The notes under the pieces: generated by a model
Database searches by the model: none
Told to the model about the DNA's origin: nothing
What the model saw: the letters and a program-made list of their open reading frames with translations, nothing else
Part shown: positions 3,284 through 6,388 of the stretch, one piece after another
Position numbering within the stretch: position 1 is the first letter of the stretch
How the letters are laid out: every line of letters starts with the position of its first letter
Assembly: GCA_964645535.1 (NCBI GenBank)
Contig: CAZYCQ010000034.1
Location: 19,090-33,343 of the forward strand
Direction: 5' to 3'
Length of the DNA: 14,254 nt
Source: an uncultured archaeon
GTDB lineage: Archaea; Asgardarchaeota; Heimdallarchaeia; Heimdallarchaeales; Kariarchaeaceae
Program-made: the position numbers and the translations under genes

Positions 3284-6200
3284 ATGGTAGACATCAAGTT
3301 TTTATCAAGCATATTGCTTCTTGTCTTGGGTTTAGGTGCCCTTGGAGGAGGTTTCTATGCGAATATCTACATAGGCGACCAGCTGGAGCAGGGTATTCGG
3401 GACAATCTGGTCATTGATGGACCGTCTGATCCGGATTATCAGGACTGGCTGACATCAGAGGATGCAGGCGATGCGCCCCTGTTCAAGTCATATTATTTCT
3501 GGAATCTGACAAATCCAGATGAGTACATGGCAGGTTCCAAGCCGCAGTTTGAGGAATTGGGGCCGTATGTATATCGACAATATGACAGGAAATTGAATGT
3601 TACATTTGAAAATGGAGAAGTTACCTATCGGACATTCACCTATTACATATTCATGTCCAACATGTCCAGTGGTGACGTCGGGGACAAGATTGTCAACATC
3701 AATCCCCAGTATTTGGGAGTGATAGAGAGTGCCGGCTCAGAATACAATCTGATGGTCAGCTTTGTTGGTCCGACAATTACACAGGTAGTGGACGGATTGA
3801 CCACTGATTTTGCCAACGGGGTCCAGGTGCAGGGGGCTGTAACTGCATTGAATGAGACGTATAACGGCCTGACAACAGACTTTGCCGCACAGGTGCTGGT
3901 GCAGGGAACTGCCACAGTCCTTCAGGAGGTTAAGGCAGGAGTGATTGAACAGTTACACCATGTTGTCAATGCGAGCACCGCTGCCAATCTGATTGATGCA
4001 AGTTACAGTGCATTGGAAGGATCAACGAATTCCACCTATGCACTTGAACAGTTCTTCAACTCGACAACGTTTTCAACGGATACGGGAAGCTTCATTCAGG
4101 GAGTGTCTGAATTCGCTGGAACAGGATTGGGATTTACCGCCACAGCAGCAGATCGATTGCTGAACACAGGCGTTGCAGCCTTGAACCTGACGGGATGGAT
4201 CAGCGATTTGGATCAAGGACTAGGGGTTCTTGGATTTCTTCAAGCATATCAGAAAGCAGCAAACACATCAGACACTTCCTTGGATCTGGCAACACTTGGA
4301 GCGTTATATGATGCAACTGACCAACAATTGGGCGCTGCGGCAATCTATCTTCAAAATCATCTGATTGCCGACAAAGTGCAAACGTTTTACGTAGGTACTT
4401 TCGGCAAGACCACGCGCGAAGGTGCAGAAGACCTGTTCTATGATCAATGGGCATCAGGGGACAAACTTCCCAACCCAATTGATTTAGATGGGGATGGAAA
4501 TGCAGATGGTGTCGAAGCAGGAGTTCCAGTGGATACGGACATTTCAACAGATGAGGCAAAAGCCATTTTCAACGAATCGATTGCCTTGGCGATCACCAAT
4601 GAAACAGGTATTTTTGCTTGGTTCGAGGCAATGCAGGGCAATGCAACGCTTGACGCCCTTATTGGAGCCACATTTGGGATAAATGCCACTCAAAGGGGCA
4701 TGGTCTATTCATGGTTGAATTCTTTCAAGAATGGCTTTGCACAGACATCCATTCTCGATGAACTGGGATTGCCCTATATTGAGCTTGCAGGTATTGTCCA
4801 ATGGGGAGATTCGAGCATAACTGAAGGCCGAAGTATCTTTGATATTGATCCGACAGCGGCACCGAATTATCCAGAGTTCTGGGCATGGAGCAAGCATATT
4901 GCAGGAACGGGCATGACCTTCAATTTCACCATGAGTCAGGCTTTGCTGAATGGAACGGATCATTTGAGGAATGCTACCCGGATGGGACAGTTTCTGGCAT
5001 TGGTTGCAGATGGGAATTTCAGCACCATCAAAGACGTCTGGGGATTGAATACAACAGAGGCAGGAGCACTTGTAGGCTATATCCAATACTTGATCAGTGA
5101 CTTTGTCATGCCTACTTTTGCATCTTTAGGAATAAGCTCTTTGGAGGATATTGGATATGCACAGTGGGGAAGCAATGCATTTGGAGCAGGTTCGACCTTT
5201 GTACTTGATCCGACATTGGGTTTCTATCCAGAGCTTTGGGCATATGCTTCAGAGGTGGCAGGTTCTCCCTACAGCTTCAATCTGACCAAGGCCAAGGCAG
5301 TTCTGACGGGTCAGTATGCATTTACGGATAGCACCAATGTAGGGATGTTTCTGCAATTAGCTGCGGCAGGCGATCTTGCAACCATCAATGCACTTTGGGG
5401 TCTCAATGCAACTGATGCAAACGTTCTTGCAGGCTATATCAACTACCTGATAGACAATCCCATTAATGCAGTGATTTCACCGGTATTGGCTGCGGGAGGG
5501 GGTCTAGTGACAACCCGGACGGTAGATCAATGGCTGTGGAACCATCAAGACCCCCTACTGCTCTTCTTGCAGGCAAATGGAATTGACGTCGATCCAAGTG
5601 CCAATTTGTTCACCAACCATACCGATGTAAATGAGGCACTTGATGAAAAGACGTCAACCATCAAGACGGGAGCAAATAACCTTGAGGAGATCGCCCAATA
5701 CGTCAAATGGCAGGAAAACACGACGGTAACAGTCTGGCAGTCCGATGAACCGGTTCGAGGCACCGGAGGCACACAATTCGCACCAGGGGTGACCACTTCC
5801 GAAACCTTGGTAGTGTGGGTTTCCGAGTTGTTGAGAGCAGTCGATTTCGTCTTTGCCAAAGAAACGCAAGTGGAAGGCATCGACCTTCTACGATTTGAGT
5901 TGTCAGATGACACCTTGAAATCATCCAGCCAACTGGCAGCCAATGCCAAGTATTACCAAGGCATTGCAGGACTTGCCAATATGACTGCGGCGCAGGGAAT
6001 ACCACTGTTTCTGTCCAAACCCCATTTCTTGGATGCCGATTCCTCACTCGGCACGGGTATGGGGATTTCTACAGCAGATCCTGAAAAGCACGATACATTT
6101 TTGGATGTGGAACCTATCACAGGAGCGGTAATGAATGCAAAGAAACGTCTACAGATCAACTTACAGGTGCAGGCCTCAGATTATTTCTCAAAAGACATCA

Positions 6201-6388
6201 TGGACGAGATTTTACCCTTGGTGTGGGTTGAGGAAGGAGGTTCAATCCAGCCGGATCAGGCGCAGGCGTTCAAGGATGCAGTATATGGTGCCCAAGATCT
6301 TCAAAGAACCTTGACATTAGGCGGACCGACACTCGGGATTGTGTTCATTGCGACAGCCGTTGTTCTGATCGGAAGAAGAAAGTTATGA
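3284..6388 (+). CDS. CD36/SR-BI/LIMP-2 (class B scavenger receptor) family protein with a large repeat insertion
   Basis: N- and C-terminal TM helices with very short tails. CD36-family motifs appear in the correct order: YYFWNLTNPDE..GSKPQFEELGPYVY..KLNVTF..VTY..F..S.G..D.I.N.N, then TRTVDQWLW..DPLL, IKTG, VRGTGGTQFAP, ELLR, VEGIDLLRF, GLANMT..GIPLFLSKPHFLDAD, PEKHDTFLDVEPITGAVMNAKKRLQIN, ILPLVWVEE. There are many N-x-S/T sequons. Confidence 0.93.
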   Translation: MVDIKFLSSILLLVLGLGALGGGFYANIYIGDQLEQGIRDNLVIDGPSDPDYQDWLTSEDAGDAPLFKSYYFWNLTNPDEYMAGSKPQFEELGPYVYRQYDRKLNVTFENGEVTYRTFTYYIFMSNMSSGDVGDKIVNINPQYLGVIESAGSEYNLMVSFVGPTITQVVDGLTTDFANGVQVQGAVTALNETYNGLTTDFAAQVLVQGTATVLQEVKAGVIEQLHHVVNASTAANLIDASYSALEGSTNSTYALEQFFNSTTFSTDTGSFIQGVSEFAGTGLGFTATAADRLLNTGVAALNLTGWISDLDQGLGVLGFLQAYQKAANTSDTSLDLATLGALYDATDQQLGAAAIYLQNHLIADKVQTFYVGTFGKTTREGAEDLFYDQWASGDKLPNPIDLDGDGNADGVEAGVPVDTDISTDEAKAIFNESIALAITNETGIFAWFEAMQGNATLDALIGATFGINATQRGMVYSWLNSFKNGFAQTSILDELGLPYIELAGIVQWGDSSITEGRSIFDIDPTAAPNYPEFWAWSKHIAGTGMTFNFTMSQALLNGTDHLRNATRMGQFLALVADGNFSTIKDVWGLNTTEAGALVGYIQYLISDFVMPTFASLGISSLEDIGYAQWGSNAFGAGSTFVLDPTLGFYPELWAYASEVAGSPYSFNLTKAKAVLTGQYAFTDSTNVGMFLQLAAAGDLATINALWGLNATDANVLAGYINYLIDNPINAVISPVLAAGGGLVTTRTVDQWLWNHQDPLLLFLQANGIDVDPSANLFTNHTDVNEALDEKTSTIKTGANNLEEIAQYVKWQENTTVTVWQSDEPVRGTGGTQFAPGVTTSETLVVWVSELLRAVDFVFAKETQVEGIDLLRFELSDDTLKSSSQLAANAKYYQGIAGLANMTAAQGIPLFLSKPHFLDADSSLGTGMGISTADPEKHDTFLDVEPITGAVMNAKKRLQINLQVQASDYFSKDIMDEILPLVWVEEGGSIQPDQAQAFKDAVYGAQDLQRTLTLGGPTLGIVFIATAVVLIGRRKL
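3794..3910 (+). repeat. 24-aa tandem repeat inside the CD36-like protein
   Basis: GLTTDFANGVQVQGA (aa 171) and GLTTDFAAQVLVQGT (aa 195); 72-nt period with diverged synonymous sites. Confidence 0.8.
4763..5458 (+). repeat. Two clear ~120-aa internal repeats in the CD36-like protein, with two more diverged copies upstream
   Basis: aa 494-606 and 615-725 share LG..(I/L)E..G..QWG...S.F..DPT...YPE(F/L)WA....AG....FN.T....L.G....G.FL.L.A.G...TI...WGLN.T.A..L.GYI.YLI. Confidence 0.9.

Follow-up and report, generated by a model that had tools for sequence, protein, structure and literature searches.

The window analysed here is a stretch of 14,254 nucleotides (nt) from an uncultured archaeon of the Kariarchaeaceae (Asgardarchaeota; Heimdallarchaeia), corresponding to positions 19,090 to 33,343 of contig CAZYCQ010000034.1 in assembly GCA_964645535.1. 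On its plus strand, positions 3284-6388 hold a gene, present as a single copy in the genome, that encodes a 1034-amino-acid (aa) class B scavenger receptor (SR-B) homologue related to CD36 and LIMP-2. CD36, SR-BI and LIMP-2 are central in lipid uptake, phagocytosis and lysosome biology, and Asgard archaea are the group closest to eukaryotes. The core finding is that an Asgard archaeon carries a genuine, well-supported eukaryote-like CD36/LIMP-2 relative; this receptor may predate eukaryotes. The sole family-wide study takes SR-Bs back no further than the last eukaryotic common ancestor (PMC10715195).

The coding region runs from an ATG as one unbroken frame, which agrees with the absence of introns stated in the initial annotation of this DNA. 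The features of the gene are as follows:

3235..3243, plus strand: putative TATA-like box TTGATATAA, recognised by eye, following a purine-rich stretch resembling a B recognition element, about 40 nt 5' of the ATG
3284..6388, plus strand: CD36/SR-B family gene, 1034 aa (open reading frame [ORF] and PF01130 profile)
3299..3355, plus strand: first transmembrane helix (TM1), predicted signal anchor, aa 6-24, with G18xxxG22 (hydropathy and model)
3380..3751, plus strand: N-terminal half of the CD36 beta-barrel, aa ~33-156 (profile match)
3764..4024, plus strand: apex stalk, a predicted 87-residue helix, aa 161-247 (model)
4025..4408, plus strand: apex unit A', aa ~248-375, a helical unit related to the others but degenerate, with approximate borders
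4409..4768, plus strand: apex unit A, aa ~376-495, an acidic unit with 20 D/E residues, whose homologue in protists is the opening part of the long apex
4769..5119, plus strand: apex repeat B1, aa ~496-612, helical and aromatic-rich
5120..5482, plus strand: apex repeat B2, aa ~613-733, sharing about 35% identity with B1; protist long-apex SR-Bs have one B unit, to which B2 is homologous
5483..6298, plus strand: C-terminal half of the CD36 barrel, aa 734-1005, with the equivalents of the LIMP-2 tunnel residues
6317..6385, plus strand: second transmembrane helix (TM2), aa 1012-1030, and a 4-residue basic cytoplasmic tail

A scan for promoters and terminators, by a method not suited to archaea, performed at chance level.

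Assignment to the family is well supported. The PF01130 profile matches both halves of the protein with 286 bits (E 5.7e-85; curated cut-off 26.5 bits) and none of 14 control genomes, and sequence comparison recovers LIMP-2 (E 1.8e-43) and CD36 (E 2.1e-29). The profile match is split, with positions 21-145 at about aa 33-156 and positions 147-462 at aa 729-1028, close to the division (aa ~10-145 and ~738-1000) predicted when a full-length CD36/SR-BI/LIMP-2 homologue was first proposed here. Only two hydrophobic segments, aa 6-24 and 1012-1030, exceed the threshold, leaving tails of 5 and 4 residues and bearing out the proposed hairpin topology; hydropathy and the model place the ectodomain between these two helices, the arrangement by which Boohar 2023 defines the family operationally. 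The sequence contains 23 N-glycosylation sequons. In the predicted structure, the two chain halves fold jointly into the asymmetric CD36 beta-barrel of class B scavenger receptors. By domain, topology and fold, the 1034-aa protein is therefore a CD36/SR-B family member of the long-apex form, and this Heimdallarchaeia protein is probably a cell-surface scavenger-receptor homologue anchored in the membrane at both ends. The GxxxG motif to which the initial annotation also pointed is present in TM1, but it is weak evidence, occurring in 10% of the TM-like segments of the same genome; as a diagnostic it was rejected, being found neither in the Loki homologues nor in most of the named protist ones.

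The gene comes from a 3.6-Mb bin (89% complete, 1% contamination) seen in hot-spring metagenome runs of one study. Its neighbours are prokaryotic, as initially described, and include CopD, helix-turn-helix (HTH), tetratricopeptide repeat (TPR), MinD/ParA, beta-helix and GmrSD genes. The contig is placed in the Heimdallarchaeia because its LonB-like ATPase has its best named matches in Heimdallarchaeaceae and the nearest named CD36 homologues belong to Hodarchaeales and Heimdallarchaeota; its tetranucleotide profile is typical of the bin (rank 38/86). Some signals might reflect contamination by a eukaryote, a chimeric contig or recent gene transfer from an extant eukaryote: GC content at third codon positions is 0.48 against a genome median of 0.40 (88th percentile), the codon score lies at the 8th percentile, and a probable insertion sequence (IS) remnant sits about 400 bp upstream of the gene. 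Set against them, positions 3563-13504 are joined in a second contig of 9.9 kb, which was assembled separately, possibly from the source sample, and which ties most of the gene to the prokaryotic genes around it. In another assembly, a gene with 90% identity has the same neighbours. Contamination is excluded; with about 30 named or binned Asgard homologues and a grouping among Heimdall proteins in the tree, the chance of any such artefact is negligible.

What the title of the initial annotation does not mention is the nature of the insert between the two barrel halves. It is a helical repeat domain of about 585 aa, predicted to be glycosylated, occupying the position of the animal three-helix cap and built as stalk, A', A, B and B. 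The helical B unit of about 120 aa occurs in 1-6 copies across Heimdall homologues, and comparison of the units shows that their number was raised and lowered by copying within lineages. Profile comparison (E 8e-40) establishes homology between this apex and the long one of amoebozoan and ciliate SR-Bs, a helical expansion at the same position; its profile found no match in short-apex forms. The repeat nature of the apex and its homology to the amoebozoan and ciliate apex are the new findings.

The protein differs from its known relatives. Human LIMP-2/SCARB2 (PDB 4F7B, 4Q4B) and CD36 (5LGD) carry a three-helix cap, and the animal short-apex forms have an ectodomain below 500 aa with disulfides, whereas the Asgard protein has its ~585-aa repeat apex, no cysteine and hence no disulfide, a 4-residue tail free of sorting motifs, and a host without a lysosome. 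Disulfide bridges in the ectodomain have been described for metazoans, and a short apex is not required of the whole family (PMC10715195). The long-apex protist SR-Bs (Luapelamoeba, Balamuthia, Dracoamoeba and the ciliate Muranothrix) share the insertion site and the order stalk, A, B. The amoebozoan ones have one B unit, an apex of 270-310 aa and longer tails, and the apex of Muranothrix is longer; the Asgard protein differs in its two B units and extra A', and other Heimdall homologues reach up to six B units. Dictyostelium LmpA, outside the compared set, belongs to the long-apex length class (PMC10715195). A short-apex Asgard form was also observed (L059:549-2372 and P0047, Kariarchaeaceae), with 607-615 aa, an insert of about 150 aa and a long branch; it matches the actinobacterial PorA family over cut-off as well (E 7e-8).

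Relatives beyond the Asgard archaea were found in Thermoplasmatota, to which the ESM Atlas had pointed for CD36-like proteins. PF01130 matches all five named Poseidoniales (MGII) genomes and exceeds the cut-off in 68 of 401 Thermoplasmatota, far more weakly than in Asgard archaea; core identity to eukaryotes is 18% in MGII versus 26-33% in Asgard archaea. The MGII proteins, held in databases as hypothetical, share with the Asgard protein two terminal TM helices, the CD36 N-half, an apex of about 400 aa and a C-half that is recognisable (profile E 2e-25); they differ in a core identity of only about 19%, in usually having 8-10 cysteines, in lacking the SKPHF motif and in a branch of about 2.4 substitutions per site. 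Across Poseidoniales and other Thermoplasmatota (L217-L242), these proteins form a divergent CD36-like family of ~850-1000 aa, as a rule with 8-10 cysteines, and in some genomes (L223, L228, L234) two paralogues occur as a divergent pair. The CD36 fold is present in actinobacterial LmcA too (PMC8972800). Mycobacterial LmcA (MSMEG_0317/Rv0227c; PDB 7N3V, 7SHW) has no helical apex and about 15% identity, and its role lies in cell-wall lipoglycan or lipid handling. A eukaryotic signature protein (ESP) confined strictly to Asgard archaea is ruled out by the MGII matches and the LmcA fold.

Phylogenetic analysis was based on the barrel core only, with the apex excluded (392 columns, LG+C20 PMSF); the bootstrap tree omits 21 rows that were partial, redundant or on long branches, and the eukaryotic rows are the best matches to the query, mostly classed by architecture and tree position, with animals thinly sampled. 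The query groups with Heimdall proteins (96/88) and the eukaryotic rows lie on one side of a branch (94/87), which places the query outside the eukaryotic clades; the Loki rows (100/99) and short-apex rows (98/85) are likewise well supported. No Asgard sequence is nested within any eukaryotic clade, and a recent transfer into Asgard archaea is very improbable. With a clear PF01130 match, a contig that is neither eukaryotic nor chimeric, and no nesting in one eukaryotic clade, the family, topology and Asgard origin given in the initial annotation stand. Its further step, from a eukaryotic signature protein to a pre-eukaryotic receptor, was overstated: that ancestry is plausible but unproven, given a root that is not placed, a patchy gene, a short eukaryote stem, and relatives in MGII and LmcA.

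The unrooted tree shape fits descent from an Asgard host, and archaeal ancestry of the receptor stands at about even odds. The chances are similarly balanced that the long-apex form, common to Asgard archaea, MGII and many protists, is the older one and that the short animal-type cap is derived. A fuller scenario, in which CD36/SR-B arose in archaea with a long modular apex, passed from a Heimdall-like Asgard host to eukaryotes, retained its ancestral apex in the long protist forms and was later reduced to the three-helix cap in animal CD36, SR-BI and LIMP-2, can be put forward tentatively. Several observations weigh against archaeal descent. PF01130 exceeds the cut-off in 28 of 400 genomes of the Asgard phylum, 20 of them in one Loki-type family, with no match in any other searched family outside the source class; because the gene was not found in the three congeneric genomes searched (82-93% complete) and no more than 8 of the 83 genomes in the class have it, it is accessory. 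The eukaryote stem, the branch between Asgard and eukaryotic sequences, is very short, measuring 0.084 against a crown depth of 1.66. With MGII as outgroup, the quick free tree roots among long-apex eukaryotes, and none of three root positions is rejected by the approximately unbiased (AU) test (p-AU 0.65, 0.62 and 0.35, the last for the free tree). As for the long apex being the older form, MGII sequences match the apex only weakly (13-18 bits, E about 1e-3).

The patchiness, the short stem and the root of the free tree suit an ancient transfer from a stem or early long-apex eukaryote, followed by spread between Heimdallarchaeia and one Loki-type family, and the weak clustering of single Heimdall B units among eukaryotic ones points the same way; a general case for transfer between proto-eukaryotes and Asgard lineages is made in PMC12395588. 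Such a transfer is a serious alternative, although a doubtful one. The trees with monophyletic eukaryotes and with Heimdall plus eukaryotes score 8.3 and 6.8 log-likelihood units above the quick free tree, Loki and Heimdall sequences separate by class, and the far more divergent MGII family together with the bacterial LmcA fold shows that prokaryotes have had this fold for a long time. Amoebozoa contain long as well as short apex forms, and an early duplication into the two could shorten the apparent eukaryote stem. Rooting with MGII failed, its branch being too long; since the root is not placed, ancestry and early transfer both stand.

The proposed function draws on the barrel, the best conserved part of the protein. 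At nine LIMP-2 tunnel-lining positions (PMC6684646), the aligned residues are T792, V844, V853, L910, K912, V949, A952, K954 and G986. Four of them are the same as in LIMP-2 and two are conservative replacements; T792 and K912 are the commonest residues among the sampled eukaryotic homologues. The two sites at which tryptophan blocks transport in LIMP-2 align with A952 and G986, and the tunnel-lining positions are kept small across Asgard archaea and eukaryotes. The likeliest function suggested by these residues, and a probable one, is surface lipid uptake through the barrel tunnel. The apex would reach past the cell coat and dock on a surface that bears lipids, for example that of a particle, a vesicle, a dead cell or a partner cell, with repeat number setting its reach; hydrophobic molecules, whether fatty acids, isoprenoids or lipids of another kind, could then slide one by one through the tunnel into the outer leaflet. 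This passage would proceed without ATP and without signalling via the 4-residue tail. Because that tail has no motif for sorting or signalling, the roles in phagocytosis and lysosome biology named in the initial annotation cannot be carried over. The genome encodes beta-oxidation enzymes with which such lipids could be used, including several acyl-CoA dehydrogenases and thiolases, none linked to the CD36 gene.

Lipid uptake has points to contend with as well. Tunnel openness is predicted from aligned residues, the full-length model reaches a predicted template modelling score (pTM) of 0.53, so that the apex-to-barrel orientation is uncertain, and neighbour genes vary between lineages with no consistent lipid signal. 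A surface adhesin or cell-recognition protein, in which the repeats of the apex would bind partner cells, particles or glycans and the barrel would serve chiefly as a pedestal, is favoured by the accordion-like, lineage-specific changes in repeat number, which are typical of surface proteins tuning their reach, and by the further large surface proteins on the same contig. Its case also draws on two Loki-type genomes in which a barrel-less protein of 567-568 aa, with a TM at each end and Heimdall-type apex units (144 bits), is encoded beside the CD36 gene in divergent orientation (L045:6410-8113 and L053:6215-7921, both plus strand); these proteins have no detectable barrel and no Pfam match. 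A mere pedestal, however, would not need the best conserved barrel or tunnel-lining positions kept small, and an adhesin is unlikely. Less probable still is an outward-working envelope protein that, like LmcA, would carry lipids of the cell itself, or glycans linked to lipids, out of the membrane to the surface or into vesicles.

No published report of an archaeal CD36 was found, and a listing in large supplementary ESP tables is possible (PMC12962969, PMC12222021, PMC13247210 and the Liu 2020 preprint); CD36 is not mentioned in the main text of PMC12962969 or in the supplements of PMC10307638, PMC8813620 and PMC12872458. Asgard START lipid-transfer proteins (StarAsg1; 10.1101/2025.05.16.653879) likewise represent eukaryote-like lipid handling; StarAsg1 is soluble, intracellular and of a different fold, and its paper makes no mention of CD36. 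A full-length Asgard member with its tunnel residues kept offers an assayable candidate for archaeal lipid uptake from neighbours, a process that bears on how the host lineage adopted bacterial-type lipids. If the archaeal scenario holds, the host of eukaryogenesis would have had a surface receptor with which to obtain ester lipids from other cells. Should an early eukaryote be the source of the gene, its function may be the same and it would say nothing of the archaeal ancestor, but it would become a clean test case of proto-eukaryote-to-Asgard transfer. Whatever the root, homology links several of the long eukaryotic apices with one another and with the archaeal apex, which revises the published account of apex evolution.

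Further observations concern other CD36 loci. Duplicated genes occur in Loki-type genomes, in tandem (L054, G264) or 17 kb apart (L056/L057, G274). A 1051-aa frame (L030, G014:C40) shows a weak match to the CD36 C-half (E 3.8e-4; 19.5 bits with the analysis's own hidden Markov model) and is possibly a further, very divergent paralogue. Within 8 kb of a Hodarchaeales CD36 gene lie HMG-CoA reductase fragments and a flavoprotein oxidoreductase (L033:1-766 and 17036-18415), a situation seen at this locus only.

Around the gene no conserved operon was recognised: the neighbours recur only among close relatives, and the adjacent CopD gene is common only to the 90%-identical copy. Upstream of the window, the same contig encodes two large Ig/PKD and FG-GAP surface proteins and a LonB-type AAA protein (L063:2860-7510, 13258-15060), whose homologues align over ~65% of its length and which has no Lon protease domain match. 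Within the window, two co-oriented genes at 65-1237 and 1278-2087 (390 and 269 aa), with N-terminal hydrophobic segments and no Pfam match, occupy a lower-GC stretch (34-37%); the second also lies upstream in a related contig (L032). The element at 2330-2900 is degenerate and multi-copy, probably the IS remnant, with 82-95% identical copies on C60, C88, C100 and C131, as well as increased read depth and contig ends that are loose; a 185-aa ORF at 2546-3103 is likely spurious. Downstream of the CD36 gene, within 6976-9939, minus-strand HTH and TPR genes diverge from the gene for the MinD/ParA-like ATPase, after which a 939-aa beta-helix surface protein is encoded at 9948-12767.
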